UHGV virus genome: UHGV-0036148
Length of the DNA: 55,727 bases
Origin: a virus
Strand: one strand, 5' to 3'
Part shown: positions 1,670 to 55,727 of the stretch, in pieces
Layout of the letters: every line of letters starts with the position of its first letter
How positions within the stretch are numbered: position 1 is the stretch's first letter
Made by a program: the position numbers and the translations under genes
Notes under the pieces: model-generated
Database searches by the model: none
What the model was told of the DNA's origin: nothing
What the model saw: the letters and a program-made list of their open reading frames with translations, nothing else

Positions 1670-1859
1670 TATCGTCACCCCGTTTGTATATTTTGATTGG
1701 CTTGATTGGGATTGCTGGCAATTCACCTTCATTCAATGCGCTTGCCATGCCCAATATTAAACGCGCTTCAGCACCAGTAACTTTCTTACACCACGCACCG
1801 CCCGTTTTATCTTCGAACAAGATAACGGCAAACTGATCGTTTATTTCCAGCTTATCCAT
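1659..1859 (-). CDS. hypothetical protein (66 aa)
   Basis: start overlaps Q stop codon (TAATG); operon context. Confidence 0.4.
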   Translation of the reverse strand: MDKLEINDQFAVILFEDKTGGAWCKKVTGAEARLILGMASALNEGELPAIPIKPIKIYKRGDDNEA

Positions 1860-2581
1860 TATTCACCCCGTGTCACTCGTTTGATTTCGTTGTCAGCCCG
1901 CGCCTCTTCTTTGAACAATTCGGCAATGGCGTCTTCATAGAAAGCCCGGTATTTCTTCCACCATGTTGATCGGCTTACCGGGAAAACAAGCTGATTAACC
2001 GCCTGCCGGACAAGATCTACAGGGAAACGCGAGTACCCGCGCCCGCCGCAGTGCTGGCACGTTTTGAACACTGGCATTTCCGCCGCTTCACTGGCTGCTT
2101 TATCCGGTACTTCGCCACGGCCCTTGCATTGTTTGCAATGATTGCGAACCGTCCCATGCCCCTTGCATTTTTTGCAAAGGTGTTTCTCACCGTATTCGTC
2201 AAACGTAAATTTATATCCGCCGCACTCCATACAAGTTTTTTCCGTCGCGGCGCTTTGGCAATAATCCCGAAACGCGAAAACGGCAACAAGAATAATGAGA
2301 TCATTGCGTTTGGCCTCGTCCAGTTCCATAACGTATTCATAATCTTTTGCCATAGCCCTTAAACGCTCTGTAAGCAAAACTACGGCCTTATGTTTTTCGG
2401 CTTGTGATAGTTCCATCTTTCCCAAAAAAGCGCTATAACCAAGCTCTACGCGCGATTGCGCCATACCTGCCGCAGTTAGTGCATCCGTAGTATTAAGAGC
2501 GTCCGGGGACGTGCCCCGGCTTTCATCTGATAAACGCGGTGATTTTGGGAAGTGGAATTTAAGAATAGATTCCAGATTCAT
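1859..2581 (-). CDS. Q: late antiterminator Q (lambda type) with extra CxxCxGxG zinc-finger repeats
   Basis: N-terminus MNLESILKFHFPKSPRLSDE... and C-terminus ...GYSRFPV...ADNEIKRVTR parallel lambda Q as I recall it; four CxxCxGxG motifs. Confidence 0.8.
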   Translation of the reverse strand: MNLESILKFHFPKSPRLSDESRGTSPDALNTTDALTAAGMAQSRVELGYSAFLGKMELSQAEKHKAVVLLTERLRAMAKDYEYVMELDEAKRNDLIILVAVFAFRDYCQSAATEKTCMECGGYKFTFDEYGEKHLCKKCKGHGTVRNHCKQCKGRGEVPDKAASEAAEMPVFKTCQHCGGRGYSRFPVDLVRQAVNQLVFPVSRSTWWKKYRAFYEDAIAELFKEEARADNEIKRVTRGE

Positions 2582-3961: not shown

Positions 3962-4120
3962 AATGCTCTCTCCTTTTAAGGTGATTTCTACGCATTTCAG
4001 CGCTGCCGGATTTTTAAAGAGCATTTTGCTTGCTTGAAGTATACAAAATGGATACGTGTAAACAAGACGAATAGCGCCATTATGTGATCCACATCACGCA
4101 ATGGCGCCATTTTGTAAATT

Positions 4121-4909
4121 TCAGTCCGGCAAAACGCGGTTGAGCGTAGTACGATTGATGGCCCTGTCGTTAGCCAGGAACACAGCACGGGCAAAGCCGC
4201 GCGGCGTTAGTGAGCGGATCATCTTAGTGCGTTTCGACTTTCCTCCCAACTTCGCGTGCTGCTTACTGTCTTCCCATTCGTCCGGCATTGGCACAGGCCG
4301 GAACAGCGGCTGTTTAAATCCGTTGCCGCACCAAATACAAGTTTTCTTCGTGTATGCGTCGCGGGCCGCTATGTATTCAGGGAAGGCAGGATGTTTGTCA
4401 TCTTCCGGCAGGTAGCCACCGTAAGCGCACGGGTTGAAAATAAAATCAGGTTTACGCCATAGCGTTGACAGTGCGCCCACCGGATTTTCCACCATCCACG
4501 GCACGTTATACATATTCGCCAGTTTTTCTACCAATTTTGCGTTATACGCCGCCTTTACCTGGAAAGCAGGATCTTTTTTTCGCTTATCAGCGAACCAGCG
4601 AGCACCAGACACAGCGAGATCGTCGCACGGCGGAAAGCCCAATATAATGTCAGGTGCTGGATAAGAAGATAATTCAGGCGAGAACATTGCCAGGAAATGG
4701 CTGTCAATCCACACGTTAACGTATTCAATATTCGGATGAATGATTTTAACGCCTTCATAATCGCCGTGATTTGCGCCGTCATAGTTGAAGCAATAGCACT
4801 TATATCCTGCTTCCGCCCAATCTTTAACGGCGTACCCGCTGCCGTCGTACAGCGACCACACAACCCAACTTCTAAGCCAATTATTTAACCAGTGTTTAGC
4901 CTTGCTCAT
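4121..4909 (-). CDS. putative DNA C5-cytosine methyltransferase-like protein
   Basis: LYDGSGY (motif I-like), GFPPCDD (PC motif IV-like), MVENPVG (ENV motif VI-like); short, no obvious target-recognition domain. Confidence 0.45.
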   Translation of the reverse strand: MSKAKHWLNNWLRSWVVWSLYDGSGYAVKDWAEAGYKCYCFNYDGANHGDYEGVKIIHPNIEYVNVWIDSHFLAMFSPELSSYPAPDIILGFPPCDDLAVSGARWFADKRKKDPAFQVKAAYNAKLVEKLANMYNVPWMVENPVGALSTLWRKPDFIFNPCAYGGYLPEDDKHPAFPEYIAARDAYTKKTCIWCGNGFKQPLFRPVPMPDEWEDSKQHAKLGGKSKRTKMIRSLTPRGFARAVFLANDRAINRTTLNRVLPD

Positions 4910-7609: not shown

Positions 7610-7686
7610 CTTGTCTTCCTCCGTGCCGTAAACCTTTTAATTTCAGTTCACAAAACGGATTCGCAATCACAACACAAAATGTATAT

Positions 7687-7708
7687 TTATGTGATCGCAA
7701 TCACAATG
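7687..7708. promoter_or_regulatory. CRP-consensus palindrome TGTGA-N6-TCACA
   Basis: ttaTGTGAtcgcaaTCACAatg, perfect half-sites with 6-bp spacer, in a 100-bp intergenic gap. Confidence 0.45.
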
Positions 7709-12968: not shown

Positions 12969-13273
12969 GTCGCTACCCTATAACCTAAAAAATTTTGATG
13001 CAAGTCACAAAACGTGTTTTTCAAGTCTTGACCCGTTAGCGCCATTCTGTAAACTTGCTGACAAGGTAAAGCCATACTTGCAATGATGCAAGGAAAAAGA
13101 TAAGGGAAAGCACAAAAAGGCCGACGCCTTAAGCTCTTTAAAAATCCGGTGTCGCTGCGAAGCGAAAAACAAATATCACGCAACGGCGGGATCTGTTGAG
13201 CGGTCAGTCACTGCTATCTAATGCTAATGGGATGCCCGCCCGCGCGTTCATTTTAACCATAGGAGAAAATACA

Positions 13274-22256: not shown

Positions 22257-25200
22257 TTATTCTTCGCTTCCGGTCAACTGACTGATAAGCGCTTCAAGTT
22301 TTGCTATCCGCTCATCCATTGCTGCAATGTTAGCTTTCAGGCTTGCGTTCTCCTCTTCCAGTTCAGTGACGCGGTTATCCGTTTCGCGTGCCACCTGGAC
22401 AAGTAAACCAGTCACCGCCGCATAGTCAACATTAAGGTAACGTGTTTCTTCTCGTAGCTCGTTGCCGTCAACGGTCGGACCCTGCAATTCATTACCGTAA
22501 CGAGTAAACGATCCTACGGCTTCCGGTAGCGCCTCCATTACTTCCTGTGCAATAACGCCAGCATAAGGAAGGCCGTTTTCCCTGAGCGTGTAGGTGTACC
22601 CGTTCATTTTGCGGATTGATTCAGTGGCTTCACCTATAACCTGAATGTTATCTTTAAGGTCGCGGTCAGATGATTGGTGAAGTGTCTGGCATGTGATATT
22701 ACCGCTAACATCAAACATTTGACCTGATGATGTTTTTTGTGCATAAAACAGGTATCCGGCAGATGTTCCAACCTCAAAAACGTTTTGTCGATCACTTGAC
22801 CCCCAGACCCTGATGCTAACTGGCAGTTCTGAATTACCTGAATTAAGTAAAGCAAAACGACTGCCCGTCCCTGCTTGTTTTCTAATTACTAAATCGGCAG
22901 TTGAGTTAACCTCATCTTTGTTGATGGTTAGCGCCTGTTTTGTAGCACCTTTGACAGTACCACTTAGTAATTGAACTGCGCCGTCGTCGCCATTTAACAG
23001 CACTTGAGCGCTGCTTCTGTGGTTTTTCAGGAACAACATTTTGCCTGTGCTTTCTGATGTGCCTACCGACCACGCCGAATTGGTTCCAGTGCTATCAACA
23101 CCGCGTACAGTACAATTCATCGCGCTATAATCTGACGTACTTCCAAGTACATCAACGCGCCCGCCACCTAATTTTGATGGAGCCGCCGAGGTTAACGACC
23201 TGACGGTTACATCCTGATTTCTTCCTGAAACAACAATCTGACTCCATGCAGACCAGTTACCATTTTCACAATAGCGAACGTATATTTGTTTCGTGTCTGT
23301 GCCAACAAGGGTTTGCAAGTTTGTATAATCTGAATCCGTGATCTTACGAATTGACTCTACACGAAGCAAAAAGTTGCCGCCTACGCCGTCAGGCTTATTG
23401 GTAATATTTGCACCGCCTCCGGCAGTTCTGCATTGATAGTATTTAACTGACCCTTTATCTGTGCCTTTTATGGTCAGATTATTAAGATCAACAGCCACTT
23501 CAGAAATGCTTTCAGGCTCAATTGCTCCCGCCATACCTGCGTTAAATGTGGCAAGGTCAGAAAAGGTTGTTTTGCCGCCTACCGTTACCCCGCTATCGAG
23601 TATTGCTTGTGTAATTACTTTGCTGTTTTTTGTGTGGTCAGAATAACTACCAAAATACAAATCACCGTCACCAGCTATACCCAGGTATTTTTGATCAACA
23701 TCATCAACCTTAAACCCAATGGACAAGTTTTTAATTGTGTTGTTGCGCGTTAAAACCAAAGGCGTATGCTGAGATCCTTTGATGCTTACCGTAGTGTTAT
23801 CGGAACTGGTGCTTGTGTTTGCAAATTCTGCGGTGGCTCCGCTGATTTTGTAAGTTACTTTTAGATCGCGGGCCTCAACCCTCCCGTCGTGGCGAACAAT
23901 AAGATCCCCTCCTGTTACGCCTTTTGCGTTTTTGGCCCTGATGCGAACTTCGCCAAGCGTATCAGTATTTGCAGGCGCCCAAACAATGCCGCGCTCACTA
24001 TCATCGTTATTATAAAACCGCAAAGCTGCGATTCCATCGACTGCCCGCAGGAAGACTGACGGTGTACCTTTTTTGATTGTCAAGTCACCGGTCATTGTAT
24101 CGCCGGTTTTTTTTACCTGCGCATCGTTAGTTACGTTACCAAGTCCAACGTCCGATTTCGACGGCTTATTTTGGGTTCCGTATAGCTCATTAATGGCATA
24201 AGTGCCGCTGTTGAGTCCAGTATCGTTACCAGCGAAAATCTTGACCCTGGCATTTTCGTATTCGATATTAATCGCTGACCACGTATCACCGCACCGCGAG
24301 AATATACCAGAACCGTGGCTATAAATGGTCGCCGTGCTTCCGGTCGGCCTATCACCGCGCCAGAAATGACCACCTTTGTCACGCAGAGCTTTTAATAGTT
24401 CTGTATTGCTCATCTTGCCGTTTGTTGCTATCCCGCTACCGCCAAGACCGAAAGCGCCTGTAAGCATAGCATTAGAAAGGCCCAGATCTGCCTTGCTGGG
24501 TTTGTTTACCTGGTCGTAAATCCTTGCTGCTGGGCTTTCAATATATCCAGCGGGTGCGTCGGCTTGCTTAACAAATCCTTCAGGAATGTATAATTCCGTG
24601 TTGCCAGTCTGCGCCAGCACCGCTACTTTTGTGTTTTTAATATAAGATCGCTGGTAGCACCAGACCTCGATATAGCCGTCACCTTTAACCAGGCCGTAAC
24701 ACATTTGACTATTATTGGGAAGGTTTGGTGAACCGAGTCGGCGAATACTTAAAAATTTAGATATATTTTCACTGGTTACTTCGCCTGTGTCGTTAAGACC
24801 TCGAGCGGAGATCTCTATAAAGTCAATATTCCCGTAACTTAAACCGTAGCCACCGCCATTTGTAACCATTAGCGTTAAGTGGCAGTCTGATGACTTTGGA
24901 TCGCTAAGTTTAGCAATCTTAACGTAAGCGCCATTACCGCTAGTTTCAACAGGCCAAGCACATTGGACCATTGGGCTGGTAAGCCTTCCCATTTGATTCA
25001 GATATTCTTGCGCCCTGTCCTCTGATGTTTTGGCTTTGGTTTCGCTTGTTTTCGCTGCCGTCTCGCTTGCCTTAGCGTTGGTTTCTGATGTTTTCGCTGC
25101 CGTGGCGGATTTTGCAGCCGCTGTTTTTGACGCTTCTGCTGCGTTTTTGTCGGATCCTGTTTTTTGAGCGTTGGCGGTTGATTTGGCTGTTTCTGCGCGA

Positions 25201-25577
25201 ATGTTGGTAAGAAGCTGATCCAACTGACCTTCGCCGCCAAAATCTTCCCACCACTCGACAGCGGAGGCGATTTCTGTTTCCTTGCCCTGGTAGTAACGCA
25301 GGGTTTCAGCTACGTCCTGAGCAAGCCCATCAACTGAGATCGAGTCAGATAGCAGGATGCTGAATTTTGTCCCGGCAGGGATGGCGGGGTTAGCCGCTGG
25401 CGTCACTGACAGTTCAGTGCCGCTTTTAATTTCTGTGATGGTAAAGATCTGTACCGGATTGCCAACAGCAATGAGCGTGCAACCTACACGAATAAGAGAA
25501 AGCGGCGCGGAAAAGTTTGTTCCCGTGCCTTTAACAGTATTGCCGTTAATGGCAACTGTTCCAGTTGTGTAAATCAT
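22257..25577 (-). CDS. tail fibre protein with C-terminal intramolecular chaperone (S74-like) domain
   Basis: 1106 aa; Ala/Lys/Thr low-complexity linker; C-terminal SDRDLKDNI...GYTYTLRENG...GVIAQE motif typical of autocleaving chaperone domains. Confidence 0.8.
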   Translation of the reverse strand: MIYTTGTVAINGNTVKGTGTNFSAPLSLIRVGCTLIAVGNPVQIFTITEIKSGTELSVTPAANPAIPAGTKFSILLSDSISVDGLAQDVAETLRYYQGKETEIASAVEWWEDFGGEGQLDQLLTNIRAETAKSTANAQKTGSDKNAAEASKTAAAKSATAAKTSETNAKASETAAKTSETKAKTSEDRAQEYLNQMGRLTSPMVQCAWPVETSGNGAYVKIAKLSDPKSSDCHLTLMVTNGGGYGLSYGNIDFIEISARGLNDTGEVTSENISKFLSIRRLGSPNLPNNSQMCYGLVKGDGYIEVWCYQRSYIKNTKVAVLAQTGNTELYIPEGFVKQADAPAGYIESPAARIYDQVNKPSKADLGLSNAMLTGAFGLGGSGIATNGKMSNTELLKALRDKGGHFWRGDRPTGSTATIYSHGSGIFSRCGDTWSAINIEYENARVKIFAGNDTGLNSGTYAINELYGTQNKPSKSDVGLGNVTNDAQVKKTGDTMTGDLTIKKGTPSVFLRAVDGIAALRFYNNDDSERGIVWAPANTDTLGEVRIRAKNAKGVTGGDLIVRHDGRVEARDLKVTYKISGATAEFANTSTSSDNTTVSIKGSQHTPLVLTRNNTIKNLSIGFKVDDVDQKYLGIAGDGDLYFGSYSDHTKNSKVITQAILDSGVTVGGKTTFSDLATFNAGMAGAIEPESISEVAVDLNNLTIKGTDKGSVKYYQCRTAGGGANITNKPDGVGGNFLLRVESIRKITDSDYTNLQTLVGTDTKQIYVRYCENGNWSAWSQIVVSGRNQDVTVRSLTSAAPSKLGGGRVDVLGSTSDYSAMNCTVRGVDSTGTNSAWSVGTSESTGKMLFLKNHRSSAQVLLNGDDGAVQLLSGTVKGATKQALTINKDEVNSTADLVIRKQAGTGSRFALLNSGNSELPVSIRVWGSSDRQNVFEVGTSAGYLFYAQKTSSGQMFDVSGNITCQTLHQSSDRDLKDNIQVIGEATESIRKMNGYTYTLRENGLPYAGVIAQEVMEALPEAVGSFTRYGNELQGPTVDGNELREETRYLNVDYAAVTGLLVQVARETDNRVTELEEENASLKANIAAMDERIAKLEALISQLTGSEE

Positions 25578-25620
25578 CTCGATGACTCCATTTTGTTAAT
25601 TAACGGAATAATTCTACCAT

Positions 25621-25642
25621 TTTGTGATCTGTGTTGCATTTT
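25621..25642. promoter_or_regulatory. degenerate CRP-like site upstream of lipoprotein gene
   Basis: tttTGTGAtctgtgTTGCAttt; left half-site perfect, right half degenerate. Confidence 0.25.
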
Positions 25643-25754
25643 CTGCTTACACAAAATGTATTTGTTGATTTATATCAATATACGAAATGTTGTTTTGTCG
25701 GATATTCAAGACACCGGATGAACCGGACGAGCTAACAAGAACGAGGATTAAAAA

Positions 25755-33361: not shown

Positions 33362-33383
33362 TTTGTGATCGCCGTCACGCTAA
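33362..33383. promoter_or_regulatory. degenerate CRP-like site in divergent region between L and plus-strand moron cassette
   Basis: tttTGTGAtcgccgTCACGc. Confidence 0.25.
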
Positions 33384-33473
33384 ATCATACCAAAACGGTT
33401 GATAGCGATTTTTACAATATGTATATTGTACTCAAAAGGAAGCATGGTTAACAAAATGGCGCGGAGGTGTGAG

Positions 33474-34382: not shown

Positions 34383-34410
34383 AACCCCGCTTCTCGCGGG
34401 GTCGTGTTTA
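34383..34410. terminator. hairpin terminator closing the plus-strand moron cassette
   Basis: CCCCGC-ttctc-GCGGGG hairpin; T-rich on minus side, TCGTGTTTAT on plus side. Confidence 0.45.
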
Positions 34411-34984: not shown

Positions 34985-35020
34985 ATACATCTTTACGCGC
35001 TTCTACGCGAAAAATGAGAA
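34985..35020 (-). promoter_or_regulatory. conserved intergenic element (copy 1) upstream of M
   Basis: atacatCTTTACGCGCTTCTACGCGAAAAATGAGAAA; near-identical copy at 47609..47645. Confidence 0.4.
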
Positions 35021-35127
35021 ATTCATCACAAGAATTATAACCAGTTTACAAAATGGCTTCACACAGTGCGTGACAATATGTATATAGTAAGCAAGAAGAA
35101 AAAGCAGTACCGACAAAGGAGGCCAAC

Positions 35128-35556: not shown

Positions 35557-35691
35557 GGCGGGCATGAAGGGCGATAAATTCACCCGGCGGGGGAACTGGA
35601 ATGTTTGACAGGTAATTTTGGATAGGGTGTATCGCGCGGAATGGTTGTTTATAAATACGAAAATAGCCCCGGCATTGTGCCGGGGTTTGGT

Positions 35692-38841: not shown

Positions 38842-39100
38842 GATTTAACCTCATACAAAATGTGATCTATGCCTCTATTTTATACAAAATGGATTTACCT
38901 CAGTGAACACATTTTGTATAAAGAAGCCAAAGGAAAGGGATAGAGCGAAGGGACTTAAAAGGCCGGATTGACCGGAGGAAGCAAAAGAGGATAAGAAAAT
39001 GAAAAACGTAAACTACCACCCCAACGAACATGAGCGCTATGCTGACTTTATCGAGCAAATGTTAAAAGCGCTGAAAAACAAAAACTAAGCGGGGTGAAAT

Positions 39101-39460
39101 ATGAAAAGTCTGGCAAAAATCTTAATCGTGGCGGTACTTGCAGGAGTTGCGCTTAATGCTAATGCTGAGCACTCTCCGTCCGCAAAATACATACTTCGTG
39201 AATGTGCGCATAATGCTCAGTTGTACGATATAAAGCATGGTGACGGTAATGGTGATCTGGAAATGCCATTTAACGTTGGCTGTATTCATTACGCAATGAA
39301 GCCAGTATTAGAAAAAACCGCTGAATGGAAAGATCTTAATAGCAAGTACAATGAATTAAAAGAGGCGGCAAAAAACAATAAAGCGTCACTAAATGCGTTT
39401 AAGGATGGCGAGTCTTATGGTGTAAACGTGGCCCACAGAGTTGATGCGTATTTCAACTAA
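39101..39460 (+). CDS. secreted protein with signal peptide (moron)
   Basis: MKSLAKILIVAVLAGVALNANA signal peptide; opposite strand within tail module. Confidence 0.5.
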   Translation: MKSLAKILIVAVLAGVALNANAEHSPSAKYILRECAHNAQLYDIKHGDGNGDLEMPFNVGCIHYAMKPVLEKTAEWKDLNSKYNELKEAAKNNKASLNAFKDGESYGVNVAHRVDAYFN

Positions 39461-39472
39461 CACAGAATTTTA

Positions 39473-39499
39473 GAGGCCCGGCTAATCCCGGGCTTTTTC
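39473..39499 (+). terminator. rho-independent terminator after secreted-protein gene
   Basis: GCCCGG-ctaatc-CCGGGC followed by TTTTTC. Confidence 0.5.
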
Positions 39500-40162
39500 T
39501 TGCTCGCTATTTTCCATTCTTTTTAGTATCTCCATAGCCTCCCTCATTCCATCGTCATAAGCCTTTTTATCCAGTAATACATCTGGTCGTTTTTGTTTGT
39601 TTCTTGCTTCTGGCGGCGTTTTAGCACGCACAGCGGCCCTATATCCGGTCATTGTCATATTCCACGCTTCTGATTCTGATAACCCCAGGTGAGCAACGGC
39701 AGAATAAACAAACTCCAGTATGTCGAACGTTGGTTTGTATTCACCTTCCTGTCTATCGCTTGCGACCTCTTCAGGGCCATCACCAATTAAGCCGTGGTAC
39801 ATGCAGTGTTGCGCCAGCGTAATAACATCATCAACCGGCATTATTCCCGGTTTTAATCTCAATTTACCCGAAGGAGTGAACCTGCATTCGCCCAATAACG
39901 GGCCTGTTTCGTCGTCTGAGCAACATTTCAGTATGTGGATGGATGTTTGTACTATCTCACCATAACACCGCGCCATAATGCGATTGCGGAGGTCTGGATC
40001 TGTGGGTAATCGTGATGGGTATTTGCTGCCGTGGATAAGTGCGAAATATTCGACAAGCTCACTATCGTTGCCGATTTTAGCCATCGCAGCAAAGCAAGGA
40101 TTAAATTCATAGCGCTTACCGTTCACCACAGCCGCAAATTGTCCTGTACGAACATGGATCAT
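39482..40162 (-). CDS. putative tail assembly chaperone (by position)
   Basis: occupies the G/GT position between major tail gene and tape measure; ATG 40162 with AGGGTGA SD. Confidence 0.3.
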   Translation of the reverse strand: MIHVRTGQFAAVVNGKRYEFNPCFAAMAKIGNDSELVEYFALIHGSKYPSRLPTDPDLRNRIMARCYGEIVQTSIHILKCCSDDETGPLLGECRFTPSGKLRLKPGIMPVDDVITLAQHCMYHGLIGDGPEEVASDRQEGEYKPTFDILEFVYSAVAHLGLSESEAWNMTMTGYRAAVRAKTPPEARNKQKRPDVLLDKKAYDDGMREAMEILKRMENSEQEKARD

Positions 40163-52237: not shown

Positions 52238-52438
52238 TTACTTATTCCCCATTCGCGCGTCGTGTTCCTCTTGCGCTCGCTTGTTCTCCTGTGATTTGAA
52301 GTAATAGTTAACGGCAAATGTGCCTACGGTTGATAAGATACCCACAAAGACGGCAATATCATTGATGGTTATCGCGCCGAAAAAAGCAGTTACGGCCCCA
52401 GTCACATACGCGCACGCCTCCCGTATTCTGTCTAACAT
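52238..52438 (-). CDS. holin (pinholin-like, two TM segments)
   Basis: 66 aa, two hydrophobic segments, charged C-terminus, immediately upstream of SAR endolysin. Confidence 0.65.
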   Translation of the reverse strand: MLDRIREACAYVTGAVTAFFGAITINDIAVFVGILSTVGTFAVNYYFKSQENKRAQEEHDARMGNK

Positions 52439-52455
52439 AGATTTACCTCCAACAA

Positions 52456-52480
52456 AGCAAAAACCCGGCGCGGGGCCGGG
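52456..52480 (-). terminator. rho-independent terminator immediately upstream of holin (tR'-like)
   Basis: minus strand CCCGGC-cccgc-GCCGGG followed by TTTTTGCTTTGTT. Confidence 0.55.
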
Positions 52481-52508
52481 TAATTACAATTTCGCATTGT
52501 TAGGTAAT

Positions 52509-52537
52509 ATTTTAATCTGTTTGTTTACGCTCTACAA
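52509..52537 (-). promoter_or_regulatory. candidate late promoter (PR'-like)
   Basis: minus strand TTGTAG - 17 bp - TAAAAT about 30 nt upstream of terminator hairpin. Confidence 0.3.
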
Positions 52538-52545
52538 ATACGGCT

Positions 52546-52722
52546 TTACGACTTTCTTTTTATCAGGCCATTATCAAGCAATAATTGCATTTGTTCACGG
52601 CTCATATTTACACCAGACCAGAAAGGCCGCTCACTCGACATAACAAAAACCTTTTCACCTTTCAGCAAGTAAGCAATATCAAATACATTATGCAAATAGA
52701 TGCCGTCTTCGATCTCGTTCAT
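52546..52722 (-). CDS. hypothetical protein (58 aa)
   Basis: ORF below 60-aa cutoff found by manual translation; MNEIEDGIYLHNVF... Confidence 0.3.
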   Translation of the reverse strand: MNEIEDGIYLHNVFDIAYLLKGEKVFVMSSERPFWSGVNMSREQMQLLLDNGLIKRKS

Positions 52723-52916
52723 AGCTCACCAACCTTGCGCCAATATCCGTGATTAAACATCGTGATGATCTCCACAGATGTCATAGGTAAAAACGGCTCA
52801 TGCCACTTCTCAAACTGACTTAATCGCATCATCACTTGTTCACCTTCAAGGCGATAATAAGCGCGTGAAGCCAATGACTGATAAACACCGTCATATTGAT
52901 GGTTGCTATTTCCCAT
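52719..52916 (-). CDS. hypothetical protein (65 aa)
   Basis: ORF in operon context. Confidence 0.35.
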   Translation of the reverse strand: MGNSNHQYDGVYQSLASRAYYRLEGEQVMMRLSQFEKWHEPFLPMTSVEIITMFNHGYWRKVGEL

Positions 52917-53148
52917 TTTTACGCTCCTTAATGGCTCGCTTGATCTGCTCTACCGTAGCATCGAAGAAAGCAAGAAACATAACTACAGGCCATAAAGGAA
53001 TCTCAAGGCCACCAGGTTTAGCACCGCTAAACTTAATAAAACATGACATCAGGATCGCGCCAGCGATATAAAGCAAAACAATCACAGCAATAAGGCATTC
53101 AATCATCATCGTCCTCATCGTCCTCATGTTCAGCCAGGAACTCATCAA
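52906..53148 (-). CDS. small membrane protein (two TM)
   Basis: IAVIVLLYIAGAILMSCFI and LWPVVMFLAFF hydrophobic segments. Confidence 0.4.
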   Translation of the reverse strand: MMSSWLNMRTMRTMMIECLIAVIVLLYIAGAILMSCFIKFSGAKPGGLEIPLWPVVMFLAFFDATVEQIKRAIKERKNGK

Positions 53149-53353
53149 CTACGCGGTAAGTCACTGGCGGGATGTATTCGAAATCATCAGAATCAAGATC
53201 AAGCGTCCGGCTGTCGCCGTCATCGTCCAGCGTATTCATCCCTAATTCACCGAAAGGGCCGTACCCAATACAGCCCAGATATTCGCAACCAATCGTAAAG
53301 CCAGGATATTCTCCCTTACACCTGATCTTGTACAGCTTATTTGATGCGCTCAA
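53099..53353 (-). CDS. small protein with poly-acidic C-terminal tail
   Basis: ends ...AEHEDDEDDDD; Cys/Gly-rich N-terminal half. Confidence 0.4.
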   Translation of the reverse strand: MSASNKLYKIRCKGEYPGFTIGCEYLGCIGYGPFGELGMNTLDDDGDSRTLDLDSDDFEYIPPVTYRVVDEFLAEHEDDEDDDD

Positions 53354-53660
53354 TGTTAATTCCCCCTTCCGCGCCCTCAGTCATTTTGTATTCCGCCACC
53401 AGTTCAGCACCGATCAATTCCACTTCATCACCAGGGAACGGAACGAGCGCCAGCGACGCGAAAACAAACTGTTTAATGTGGTTCAGATGGTCAAGGTCTT
53501 TCACGTCAAAAGGCGGTTCCGCTACATCGAAGCACTTAACACATGATTCATCATCAGTTGCTACACGGAAACATGCGCCAGGTTGTCCAGCGAATTGTCC
53601 AAGTTTTTTATTTTCTGCAAAAGTGCCACGGAAAACCTTAACGCTGATAAATTTAGACAT
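53337..53660 (-). CDS. hypothetical protein (107 aa)
   Basis: ORF in operon context. Confidence 0.4.
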   Translation of the reverse strand: MSKFISVKVFRGTFAENKKLGQFAGQPGACFRVATDDESCVKCFDVAEPPFDVKDLDHLNHIKQFVFASLALVPFPGDEVELIGAELVAEYKMTEGAEGGINIERIK

Positions 53661-53663
53661 TTG

Positions 53664-53921
53664 TCATTCTCCTTCGTAAAGAATTGTTACCAGTTCTGCA
53701 TCTGTTAGCGTGTTGTGATCTTTATAAGTACCGTAGCGAGCAACGAAAGCTATTTCGCCAGCTATTTTCCGCCACATAGGGATCGACTCATCAAAATAGG
53801 TGTTCTCCATTGCCTCCCTGTATGCCAGTTCATAAAAACGCCCACGGTTAACATCTTCAATCACGCGGCTATACGTGCCATCGGTACGACTTACGCCGCG
53901 CCATAGCCTGAACACAACCAT
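53664..53921 (-). CDS. hypothetical protein (85 aa)
   Basis: ORF in operon context. Confidence 0.4.
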   Translation of the reverse strand: MVVFRLWRGVSRTDGTYSRVIEDVNRGRFYELAYREAMENTYFDESIPMWRKIAGEIAFVARYGTYKDHNTLTDAELVTILYEGE

Positions 53922-53923
53922 AA

Positions 53924-54223
53924 TTAAAACTCCGCACCAGGTAAGCTACGCGCTTTGTTTACCACATCGCTTTCTAGTCTACGACGCGCTTTATAATTCA
54001 TGTTCGACATAAAGATTGCAGGTGTTTCATCATACCATGCCTTAATTTTTAACAACTGATCCACAGTGAAAACCATGTCATCATCTGTTATGTATAGCCA
54101 GTCTTCGCGCTTGCCGACCACAACATGAGATTTTCCCCAACTGTCTTTAAACTCATAATCGCAGAAGGCATCACCTTTAGGCACTTCAACAAAACAGCAC
54201 GCTATGAACTTATTGCTTTTCAT
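53924..54223 (-). CDS. hypothetical protein (99 aa)
   Basis: ATG 54223; longer frame would begin inside an intergenic hairpin. Confidence 0.4.
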   Translation of the reverse strand: MKSNKFIACCFVEVPKGDAFCDYEFKDSWGKSHVVVGKREDWLYITDDDMVFTVDQLLKIKAWYDETPAIFMSNMNYKARRRLESDVVNKARSLPGAEF

Positions 54224-54262
54224 GATTTTGTCCCATCTGTCTTTCTGTGGTTTATATATAAC

Positions 54263-54292
54263 AAAATGGCATCGCCGGAGAAATGCCATTTT
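54263..54292. promoter_or_regulatory. perfect 10-bp inverted repeat hairpin in intergenic gap
   Basis: AAAATGGCAT-cgccggagaa-ATGCCATTTT. Confidence 0.4.
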
Positions 54293-54295
54293 GTA

Positions 54296-54317
54296 TACAT
54301 TGTGATACAGATCACAT
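54296..54317. promoter_or_regulatory. CRP-consensus palindrome TGTGA-N6-TCACA
   Basis: cattgTGTGAtacagaTCACAtttt; perfect half-sites, 6-bp spacer, A/T flanks as in CRP consensus. Confidence 0.45.
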
Positions 54318-54326
54318 TTTGTTCAT

Positions 54327-54614
54327 TTAACTTGCATTTTCATCTACCTTTAAATAATTTTTCGTGTCAATACCTGCCGGATACCTTGAAAATTGCGCTA
54401 ACCATTGTCCGGTAATGTTTTTCACCAGTGCATAATCAAGATCGCCGCAGTAGAATACCTGGTACATTGTCCCTTCGTTATCATCCATAACAAAGACCAT
54501 CGGATCAGTAGTCGCATTGCGCAGCCTGTGAATCGTGTAAGCCTGGCCAGTAGTGAATTTGTACTCGTTACACGTTGTGCGGCAAAACATCCGGTCAAAA
54601 TAGCTTTCCATCAA
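54327..54614 (-). CDS. hypothetical protein (95 aa)
   Basis: ORF in operon context. Confidence 0.4.
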   Translation of the reverse strand: MMESYFDRMFCRTTCNEYKFTTGQAYTIHRLRNATTDPMVFVMDDNEGTMYQVFYCGDLDYALVKNITGQWLAQFSRYPAGIDTKNYLKVDENAS

Positions 54615-54862
54615 AAAATCCCCTTATAATCGACCGTGTATTTTGCTATCAGCTTCCATTCACAATAGCTTTCCATGTCTCGCGGCTGCCAGCCTTTCAT
54701 GCCTACAGCACTCCGCGCAGCGTGACGGCGATAATCGTCATTAAGATCCGCAATACACCACGGCTGAAGAAAAAACATATAATTCGCTTCGTTAACCAGG
54801 ATAGACATTAGTCTTCCAGTGGCCTTATCTTTCGCCCTGAAATAACTTACCTTGATTTTCAT
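54611..54862 (-). CDS. hypothetical protein (83 aa)
   Basis: ORF in operon context. Confidence 0.4.
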   Translation of the reverse strand: MKIKVSYFRAKDKATGRLMSILVNEANYMFFLQPWCIADLNDDYRRHAARSAVGMKGWQPRDMESYCEWKLIAKYTVDYKGIF

Positions 54863-55073
54863 TTTTAATTACCTCGATCAACATTTCTTCTTCCAGGTTA
54901 GCCGGACGTTTACGAAATATTCCGGCAAAAACCAAATCGTCGAGTAGGTCTTTACGCTTAAATAACCACTCCTTCATTATTACCCCGTCGTCGCTGCGAT
55001 ATACGACGCCGTTTTTCAGAAAATAAAAAGTACGGGTGTTTGTCTGGAGGTATAGATCTTCGTAAACGTCCAT
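54825..55073 (-). CDS. hypothetical protein (82 aa)
   Basis: ORF in operon context. Confidence 0.4.
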   Translation of the reverse strand: MDVYEDLYLQTNTRTFYFLKNGVVYRSDDGVIMKEWLFKRKDLLDDLVFAGIFRKRPANLEEEMLIEVIKNENQGKLFQGER

Positions 55074-55077
55074 GATG

Positions 55078-55305
55078 TTAACCCTCGACTACTTCCAGCC
55101 CGCGCCCCTTGTCGCCAACGAAGCCCCCCAGGCTGAACGTATACGACCATGCCGGATTAATGTAATGGTCATCAGCGCCAGCGGCTATCAGGTCAGCACC
55201 GTTAATCATGCATGTGACATTATCGCTATGCACCACTTTAACGACCTTACCAACAACCTGTTTCAGTGACGGATAACCGTGATCGTGCAAGAATTTTACT
55301 TTCAT
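55078..55305 (-). CDS. hypothetical protein (75 aa)
   Basis: ORF in operon context. Confidence 0.4.
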   Translation of the reverse strand: MKVKFLHDHGYPSLKQVVGKVVKVVHSDNVTCMINGADLIAAGADDHYINPAWSYTFSLGGFVGDKGRGLEVVEG

Positions 55306-55307
55306 CT

Positions 55308-55586
55308 TTACCCCTTATAAGTAACAGCATCAGAAAGCAACAATACCGCCAACATCTCACCGCCATGTAACGGATCTGGAATACCAAAAAATATATCGCT
55401 TTTACTGTCAGGCACTACTACGCGCATATTTCCCTGTTTGTCTTCATGCACGAACCACAGCTTTTCGTGTGGCTCAAACATGCCGAAAAGCAATTTAAGA
55501 TCTATCTCTTCGCCCTTCGTGAATAACGAAACATCCGTTGTGGCTATAACTAACGCTTTCTGATCTGCTGTTTTCTTCGTTCTCAT
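55308..55586 (-). CDS. hypothetical protein (92 aa)
   Basis: ATGA overlap with upstream partial ORF. Confidence 0.4.
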   Translation of the reverse strand: MRTKKTADQKALVIATTDVSLFTKGEEIDLKLLFGMFEPHEKLWFVHEDKQGNMRVVVPDSKSDIFFGIPDPLHGGEMLAVLLLSDAVTYKG

Positions 55587-55589
55587 TCC

Positions 55590-55727
55590 TCTGTCTCCCA
55601 GCGTTCAATACTGATTAAGAAGTCCCGGATAGCGTGTCGCTCGTCGCGCGTTGGTTTGCGCTTACGGTAGATCCTGAAATCGAACCATTCTTTTTCCTGC
55701 TCAAAATCCAAATCGTAAGCAACAGCT
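55590..55727 (-). CDS. hypothetical protein, C-terminal part of ORF running off the window end (in frame with 1..89)
   Basis: open frame ...AVAYDLDFEQEKEWFDFRIYRKRKPTRDERHAIRDFLISIERWETEE ending at 55590. Confidence 0.35.

Follow-up and report, generated by a model that had tools for sequence, protein, structure and literature searches.

The question raised by this locus is what function is served by a gap of 103 nucleotides (nt) between two minus-strand open reading frames (ORFs; 54327-54614 upstream and 53924-54223 downstream) of a temperate coliphage. The gap (54224-54326) belongs to the virus genome UHGV-0036148, a stretch of 55,727 nt hereinafter referred to as the window. An earlier reading made from the letters alone (the sequence-only reading) had noted a hairpin adjacent to a CRP-like palindrome in the gap, and had proposed a regulated internal promoter or an attenuator. 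That interpretation was partly supported by the present analysis, which suggests, with a probability of roughly 0.55, that the gap contains a sigma-70 promoter of the moron type for accessory genes, equipped with a class I CRP-type site. These parts make up a real, conserved regulatory element, which is most likely one copy of a promoter cassette that is used repeatedly to switch on accessory genes.

Both structural features that had been noted were present in the gap and exceed by far what chance would give. The hairpin was found exactly as described, with AAAATGGCAT (54263-54272) and ATGCCATTTT (54283-54292) separated by 10 nt, and its perfect inverted repeat was in fact 12 bp long (54261-54272 and 54283-54294, with 10 nt between the arms). 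On the minus strand, this repeat (54261-54294) is extendable to 54254-54300 and is followed by a U-rich run. The minus-strand RNA of 54250-54300 reached a folding energy of -21.1 kcal/mol (z = -6.6; 0 of 200 shuffles folded equally well), compared with -15.7 kcal/mol (z = -3.9) for the plus strand. The CRP-like sequence TGTGATACAGATCACA (54301-54316, centre 54308.5) was a perfect TGTGA-N6-TCACA palindrome, and the minus-strand 22-mer AAATGTGATCTGTATCACAATG agreed with the textbook consensus for CRP, AAATGTGATCTAGATCACATTT, in 18 of its 22 bases, including 10 of 10 in the core. The coding (minus) strand of the gap reads TAA..ACAAAATGTGATCTGTATCACAATGTATACAAAATGGCATTTCTCCGGCGATGCCATTTTGTTATATATAAACCACAGAAAGACAGATGGGACAAAATCATG, in which the order of parts is palindrome, 9-mer, -35, 17 nt, TGn-TATATA, ~25 nt, ribosome-binding site (RBS), and ATG.

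Three copies of the 9-mer were identified in the cassette. Copy 1 (54314-54322, minus strand), the variant ACAAAATGT, overlaps the left half of the palindrome to give ACAAAATGTGATC. Copy 2 (54286-54294, minus strand) is ACAAAATGG itself, extended to GTATACAAAATGGCA; it makes up the 5' arm of the hairpin, and its end is separated by 2 nt from the candidate -35. Copy 3 (54261-54269, plus strand) is inverted, reads CCATTTTGT on the minus strand, and supplies from the 3' arm the TG of an extended -10. The candidate -35, TTTCTC (54278-54283, minus strand), lies within the hairpin loop at a position homologous to TTGACT of the pR-like promoter described below, and we attribute the existence of the hairpin to the two inverted copies of a promoter-associated 9-mer that bracket this -35. 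The candidate -10, TATATA (54255-54260, minus strand), is located 17 nt from the -35 and is preceded by TGT (TG at 54263-54262). From its position, a transcription start is predicted at 54246-54248 on the minus strand, which would leave a leader of ~25 nt. The RBS, GATGGGA (54237-54231, minus strand), stands at a normal distance from the ATG (54223) of an ORF of 99 amino acids (aa).

The 9-mer is not confined to this cassette. ACAAAATGG was found in 14 exact copies in the window, mostly next to promoters, compared with 1.02 expected; none of 100 shuffles had more than 5. Of these copies, at least 7 fell within the ~10% of DNA that is non-coding under a crude coding mask, which counts over-extended ORFs as coding; by inspection the number was 11-12. 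Two perfect copies of TGTGA-N6-TCACA were present in the 55.7 kb. When one mismatch was allowed, nine CRP-like sites were detected (1.58 expected; 0 of 100 shuffles reached nine), six of them in non-coding DNA under the same mask. When bacterial genomes totalling 596 Gb were scanned for ACAAAATGG-N14-18-CCATTTTGT, the matches were at chance level only, in unrelated taxa.

Conservation was assessed by BLAST against 5,426 complete Escherichia coli genomes and phage records, and by pattern scans of viral contigs. The window matched the mEp021-like 'mEpimmI' temperate coliphages (mEp010, mEp554, mEp021, mEp515, mEp044, and MagusPhagus), a group reported to be prevalent in the human gut, and its genome behaves as circularly permuted. 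A core of ~70 nt (54322 to 54252, minus strand), from the palindrome through TATA, was kept without insertion or deletion in at least 26 distinct sequences, and the pattern scans added dozens of roughly 54-kb contigs with one copy apiece. The first scan pattern fixed the sequence of the hairpin arms, and the second was anchored on the upstream part alone; all J-type sequences listed by the second scan still bore the inverted arm and TATA(T/A)A. Variation among the 26 aligned sequences was limited to the palindrome spacer, two non-critical bases of its right half, the loop centre, and two A/G positions of the arms. Within the palindrome, GTGA was invariant and each of the two C's of the right half was kept in 25 of 26 sequences while neighbouring bases drifted, and the conserved GTGA and C.C are the pattern expected from the base contacts of CRP. 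The -35 of the window matches TTGACA at only 2 of 6 positions, and the relatives have TTGTTN in 24 of 26 cases (TTG kept). The -10 was TATATA or TATAAA in the relatives, with the A at -11 present and the T at -7 absent.

The core moves as a unit while its neighbours change. At least five upstream contexts and at least three first downstream genes were found, mosaic junctions occurred at both edges of the core, a sequence break among relatives fell directly after TTTTGTTATA, and zero, one, or two extra small genes separated the core from the 99-aa gene. No copy of the cassette was found in mEp021, and the BLAST match to mEp515 ends at the gene start, so that the cassette is probably absent there. 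As in morons, the cassette is polymorphic in presence (carried by most relatives but not by all), its first genes vary, and a terminator (t5) lies downstream, promoter activity being predicted. In relatives with extra genes after the cassette (L001 ~4630-4660, L002 4490-4520, and L005/L008-L010), a GC hairpin without a U-run, CACGGGGCCGGATGGCCCCATCAAAC, was observed just ahead of the 99-aa gene; this hairpin is also present in mEp021 and is missing from the window.

The layout of the cassette recurs at other promoter-like sites in the window, where a palindrome is followed by ~17 nt, in which a 9-mer in forward orientation usually reaches to within 0-2 nt of the -35, and then by the -35 itself, a spacer of 16 or 17 nt and TATAnn. 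The spacers often end in CCATTyTG or ACAAWATG. The pR-like site (12196-12168, minus strand; TTGACT-17-TATATT) was the top match of a generic promoter scan, carries the 9-mer directly upstream of its -35, and is followed by a nutR1-like boxA. The pL-like site (13028-13055, plus strand; TTGACC-16-TAAACT), with nutL downstream, was also flagged by the scan. A further site, linked to nutR2 (within 4030-4116, minus strand; TTGTTT-16-TATACT), is located ~20 nt before the nutR2 boxA. Aligned through the -35, the pR-like site (AAAGTATACAAAATGG-ATTGACTCGG) corresponds to AAAGTATACAAAATGGCATTGTTTCGG, and TTGTTT is therefore the putative -35 homologue. In mEp021, the spacers of the pL-like and nutR2-linked promoters differ from those of the window, and the hexamers and CCATTyTG are kept; in the window, this string abuts the -10 in pL, in the nutR2-linked promoter, and in the element at 38855 (38909-38917).

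The layout also heads accessory genes. Three plus-strand gene islands were found inside the minus-strand tail region, each closed by a terminator; since they lie on the opposite strand and end at terminators, they must own promoters, which would be located at the cassette-like sites at their heads. These sites are at 33399-33427 (element 33364-33427; TTGATA-17-TATATT, scan 10/12), ~35058-35086 (element 35015-35086; TTCACA-17-TATATA), and 38894-38922 (TTTACC-17-TATAAA), all on the plus strand. The islands headed by the first two elements close at terminators 34384-34402 and 35665-35687, respectively. The element at 38855-38925 is a true paralogue of the cassette: it starts with the same ACAAAATGTGATC string and consists of ACAAAATGTGATCT, 15-16 nt, TATACAAAATGG, 16 nt, (A/C)CATTTTGT, and TATAAA. 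A profile built from the cassette relatives found it (38858-38923, E = 0.0078) and, more weakly, 35013, 7689, and pR. This paralogue was detected in 35 E. coli prophages with variable cargo (e.g., a 'TagO'-annotated protein), and its -35-like TT(T/C)AC(C/T) was conserved amid an otherwise variable inter-arm segment. The unit that it heads (38855-39500, plus strand), which separates the tape-measure gene from the tail gene that follows, is a textbook opposite-strand moron, containing a 29-aa ORF (39000-39089), a 119-aa ORF with a signal peptide (39101-39460), and the hairpin GCCCGGCTAATCCCGGGC with a T-run.

The spacing of the palindromes is consistent with activation by CRP. The distance from palindrome to -35 was 17 nt in the cassette, the nutR2-linked site, and the element at 38855, 18 nt at pL, and 19 nt at 33364; at 35015 it was 27 nt. 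If the -10 is 54260-54255 and transcription starts near 54248, the cassette has its palindrome centred at about -60.5, to within 1-2 nt for a predicted start. On predicted starts likewise, the palindromes of the sister sites would be centred at about -59.5 to -62.5, and at -70.5 at 35015. Class I CRP sites are centred near -61.5, -71.5, -82.5, or -92.5 (Busby and Ebright 1999).

All ORFs around the gap are on the minus strand, and transcription runs from the Q-like antiterminator gene (1859-2581, minus strand; PF03589, E = 5e-30) through position 1/55727 and the gap to the holin-endolysin-spanin genes (52438-51288). The gap had been described as the only sizeable one in its gene block, and this held within the block, the exception being the 107-nt gap directly upstream of the holin gene. 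Downstream lie the 99-aa gene (53924-54223, minus strand) and six more small ORFs, to 52546. Searches of Pfam and PHROGs assigned no function to the flanking small proteins, the PHROGs matches being to proteins of unknown function.

Taken as a promoter, the cassette would work as follows. A sigma-70-type promoter would fire leftward (minus strand) into the seven small accessory genes (54223 to 52546), and t5 would end the unit. The CRP-type site near -60.5 would occupy a class I activator position, and ACAAAATGG, at about -46 to -38, would fall in the zone contacted by the C-terminal domain of the RNA polymerase alpha subunit (alpha-CTD) and by UP-proximal contacts. The weak -35 (TTTCTC; TTGTTT in relatives) would be followed by a 17-nt spacer whose end, CCATTTTGT, provides the TG of an extended -10, and by TATATA. 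Cyclic AMP (cAMP)-bound CRP would recruit RNA polymerase to the cassette, and the accessory block could then be transcribed under catabolite control (sugar starvation), with no need for the N-like/Q antitermination cascade; lysogens are one setting in which this could occur. The hairpin probably also forms in read-through RNA from upstream and may act as a weak terminator, making the cassette a terminator-promoter insulator. Of the two functions offered by the sequence-only reading, the promoter is the better supported, since the layout matches that of the nut-linked early promoters and the opposite-strand moron promoters and the CRP-like site lies at a class I distance. An attenuator was not supported: the 103-nt gap holds no leader ORF, and the sole alternative pairing, of copy 1 with copy 3, is not the mutually exclusive terminator/antiterminator pairing of an attenuator.

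Several points weigh against this interpretation. The -10 lacks the nearly invariant T at -7, as it also does in two sister moron promoters, and the generic promoter scan made no call at the candidate -10 in 54224-54326, a miss that we ascribe to the A at this position. The -35 of the window, TTTCTC, is degenerate, and the position of -60.5 depends on a predicted start. An RNA stem (19 bp, 95% paired, four G.U pairs) that includes the TTGTT of the relatives would be another reason for its conservation, and the published annotation has a predicted terminator for the homologous hairpin. The left half of the palindrome overlaps the third 9-mer copy (copy 1 above), so another protein could be its reader. 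Finally, the relatives are all closely related and the first sample was partly pattern-selected on the hairpin arms, which gives the conservation limited weight.

The alternative that survives best, which we nevertheless consider unlikely, is that the hairpin is purely an intrinsic (Rho-independent) terminator ending the upstream block of small genes, with no promoter present and the palindrome incidental. The segment between the arms pairs as well in most relatives (CAUUGU with GCAGUG), which results in a 19-bp stem with a UUCG, UACG, or UCCG loop (-20 to -21 kcal/mol, z ~ -6) followed by (A/G)UUUUGUUAU, a U-rich tail. Across the relatives, 95% of cells of the stem were paired on the sense strand, and its four G.U pairs are A.C mismatches on the opposite strand. 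One-sided substitutions mostly preserved pairing: by our own count, transitions at positions other than U.G pairs were pairing-compatible in six cases and incompatible in one (p ~ 0.06). Further, ARNold-predicted terminator T8 in the mEp010 GenBank record PP180001 corresponds to the homologous hairpin and T-run (L001 4838-4882), and terminator features were also annotated beneath the match in mEp554 and mEp044. Terminator-then-promoter pairs recur in the phage as well (t1-pR and t4-nutR2 promoter). In the mEp010 record, a 36-aa ORF (mEp010_64, L001 4802-4912) was called across the cassette, overlapping T8, and is probably a spurious call.

Other properties do not suit a terminator alone. The stretch after the GC core, AUUUUGUUAU, is paired with the A-run upstream, which sequesters the U-run, and a terminator scan left the hairpin uncalled both in the window and in L004. 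The stem core has 5 bp in the window, where the upper stem is interrupted to give a 10-nt loop, against 8 bp (4 G-C and 2 G.U) and a UUCG loop in the relatives. A covariation test found no pair altered on both sides and no excess over shuffles, so compensatory double changes were absent. The paralogue at 38855-38925 keeps the inverted 9-mers and their 16-nt spacing without a GC stem or a free U-tract, and sits where its strand has nothing to terminate. Nor would a terminator account for the palindrome, the invariant AAA(T/C)GTGATCT, the constant distances, or the TATA(T/A)A close to the RBS. Termination is thus seen as a possible second function of the hairpin and not its main one. A search of 52300-55727 against Rfam at a permissive threshold gave chance-level matches only, none of them in the gap.

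Somewhat less probable still is that the inverted 9-mers (12-16-12 in the paralogue), the palindrome, or both are operators for a phage-encoded DNA-binding protein with a dispersed regulon. The excess of ACAAAATGG in the window and its share in non-coding DNA speak for such a protein, as do the fixed positions of the 9-mer relative to -35 and -10 at about nine promoter-like sites and the inverted pair around the -35, whose copies are separated by exactly 16 nt in both of two diverged paralogues. Among relatives of the 38855 copy, the two arms changed in concert in one case (T-A to T.G to C-G), and the 9-mer has a higher sequence specificity than would be expected of a generic A/T-rich UP element. 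Against this, no candidate protein was identified, the half-sites lie 25 bp apart centre to centre, which is unusual for one dimer, and pR and pL, with one copy each, would have only half an operator. Expression in lysogens is the usual state of morons, and not repression alongside early genes. The palindrome and its flanks fit the CRP consensus beyond what any alternative needs, and the 9-mer positions coincide with known contacts of RNA polymerase. A role of the cassette motifs as operators of the phage repressor was not favoured, as the palindromes seen in the immunity region just beyond the -10 of pL are of the CTTG-N4-CAAG type, in place of the 9-mer or the TGTGA palindrome.

That the core is a non-functional linker, conserved only through recombination between mosaic modules, is very improbable: the junctions at both of its edges would suit such a linker, but conservation is position-specific (loop centre, spacer, and non-critical bases vary; GTGA, C.C, 9-mers, and TATA are fixed) and the diverged paralogue retains the architecture. 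Least probable of all is that the gap is a Q-dependent late promoter or, as the sequence-only reading suggested, marks the boundary between delayed-early and late transcription. Its place beyond the Q-like gene and ahead of the lysis genes, with t5 downstream, would suit such a role, but the cassette is absent from mEp021 (with an annotated Q) and probably from mEp515, both of which have the lysis cassette, it is placed 1.8 kb and seven genes upstream of t5, and the pR'-tR' position next to the holin gene is filled by another promoter-like sequence, kept in 20 of 20 relatives.

That other sequence consists of TTGTAG (52537-52532), 17 nt, and TAAAAT (52514-52509) on the minus strand, with a -10-like TAACAAT in the early transcribed region between TAAAAT and t5. 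Located ~30 nt downstream, t5 (52463-52481, minus strand) is a strong intrinsic terminator ~25 nt before the holin ATG; t5 of mEp021 is described as experimentally demonstrated (PMC11893012). The whole stretch 52537-52463 was identical in mEp021, and its core was kept in all 20 distinct relatives reaching the region, including cassette-less ones, the TAAAAT -10 being conserved and the TTGTAG -35 present in most. We consider that 52460-52545 is a probable Q-dependent late promoter, and, from the resemblance to the lambdoid pR'-tR' arrangement, that the early/late boundary more likely lies at 52537-52463. A second variant upstream, CCATAATCGCGCATAAAAAACAAATAGAT, had no obvious -35.

Other functions were considered for the gap and rejected. 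A sigma-54 promoter (TGGCAT-N5-CGGCA, GG-N10-GC in the hairpin) did not hold, as L003 has lost the GC, the sequence in the window is CGGCG, and such spacing is missing from the 38855 paralogue. The boxA of the phage, GCTCTTTAAAAATCCGG, was found at three other places and not in the gap, which argues against a nut site (boxA-boxB). For a promoter on the plus strand, some relatives have a better -10 (TATACT, TAAACT), but no -35-like hexamer is present (CTGCCG), and the 38855 paralogue conserves the forward -35 only.

Several observations concern the sister sites themselves. A promoter-like sequence is present ahead of each of the three nut sites. In 4030-4116 (minus strand), the long hairpin GGCGCCATTGCGTGATGTGGATCACATAATGGCGC, which holds a CRP-like palindrome within a larger inverted repeat and is equivalent to the predicted t4 of mEp021, is followed by TTGTTT-16-TATACT and then by the nutR2 boxA, so that nutR2 seems to have its own promoter. 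On the plus strand, a scan-flagged promoter-like sequence antisense to the early-right operon (7660-7687; TTCGCA-16-TATATT) is contained in 7650-7705, which reads ACAAAACGG-A-TTCGCA-16-TATATT and has a perfect TGTGATCGCAATCACA immediately after it, in an operator-like position; this site may give a CRP-repressed antisense transcript. Three copies of the motif ACAAAATG (25588-25651, minus strand) were found upstream of the 1106-aa gene (22257-25577), together with ATGCAA-17-TAGAAT, a candidate only, and the distal tail-fibre gene may have an internal promoter in this region. Around pL (13056-13090 and 12994-13009), palindromes of the CTTG-N4-CAAG type, ACTTGCTGACAAGG and CTTGCAATGATGCAAG, follow closely on the pL-like -10, and a related half-site occurs inside the CRP-like TTTGATGCAAGTCACA; these are candidate operators of the CI-like repressor, of which the group's paper describes none.

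The 9-mer repeated across the genome, and the CRP-like sites that recur at the early promoters and those of morons, are by-products of greater interest than the cassette itself. They raise the idea, tentative and on balance doubtful, that mEpimmI phages wire much of their transcription to host cAMP-CRP through a shared cassette of a CRP site at a class I distance and ACAAAATGG(C). Besides the pL-like and nutR2-linked promoters, at least four promoters of accessory genes (morons), the present one among them, may fall under such wiring, and the 9/10-mer, inverted around the -35, may be read by a further factor. If true, it would define a dispersed phage regulon. To our knowledge, no description exists of the promoters of mEpimmI phages; the main paper on the group covers only nut sites and terminators. 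If the cassette is a promoter activated by CRP, a concrete map of at least nine promoters in these phages would be obtained, and it would be explained how the accessory genes between Q and lysis and the morons of the tail region are expressed outside the N/Q antitermination cascade. A further implication would be that, in a common gut coliphage, both early transcription and the genes of lysogenic conversion respond to nutrient state (glucose, cAMP). The database annotation T8 would be corrected, being perhaps only half the story.

Compared with T8 of mEp010, which is a software prediction only, the cassette has the same homologous hairpin and T-run, and the T8 annotation takes no account of the palindrome next to the hairpin, of the promoter-like hexamers, or of the repeat, present throughout the genome, from which the arms are made. 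As in the P1 C1 operators and the 'stoperators' of mycobacteriophage L5, a short asymmetric motif is repeated genome-wide, mostly in short non-coding gaps; unlike those, the 9-mer occupies fixed promoter positions in both orientations and not one orientation along transcription. In coliphage T1, cAMP-CRP regulates several promoters (pir, dam, and recE), which ties phage expression to the metabolic state of the host (PMC6737242). A similar use of host CRP is predicted here, with the difference that CRP represses in T1 whereas the geometry suggests activation in the present phage, which belongs to an unrelated group without sequence similarity.

Among class I CRP promoters, the cassette resembles the lac P1 type in its near-consensus 22-bp site ~61 bp upstream of the predicted start, its weak -35, and the A-rich alpha-CTD stretch between the CRP site and the -35, and a sister site in the phage is placed one helical turn further up (about -70.5). 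It differs from that type in that the -10 lacks the T at -7, the site overlaps a phage 9-mer, and an inverted repeat brackets the -35, with CRP activation being predicted. In its variable presence, variable cargo, own promoter-like sequence, and downstream terminator, the unit is like the morons of HK97 and lambda. Unlike them, it is co-directional with the operon and shares t5 with the late-promoter region, whereas the three sister units of the tail region are textbook opposite-strand morons.

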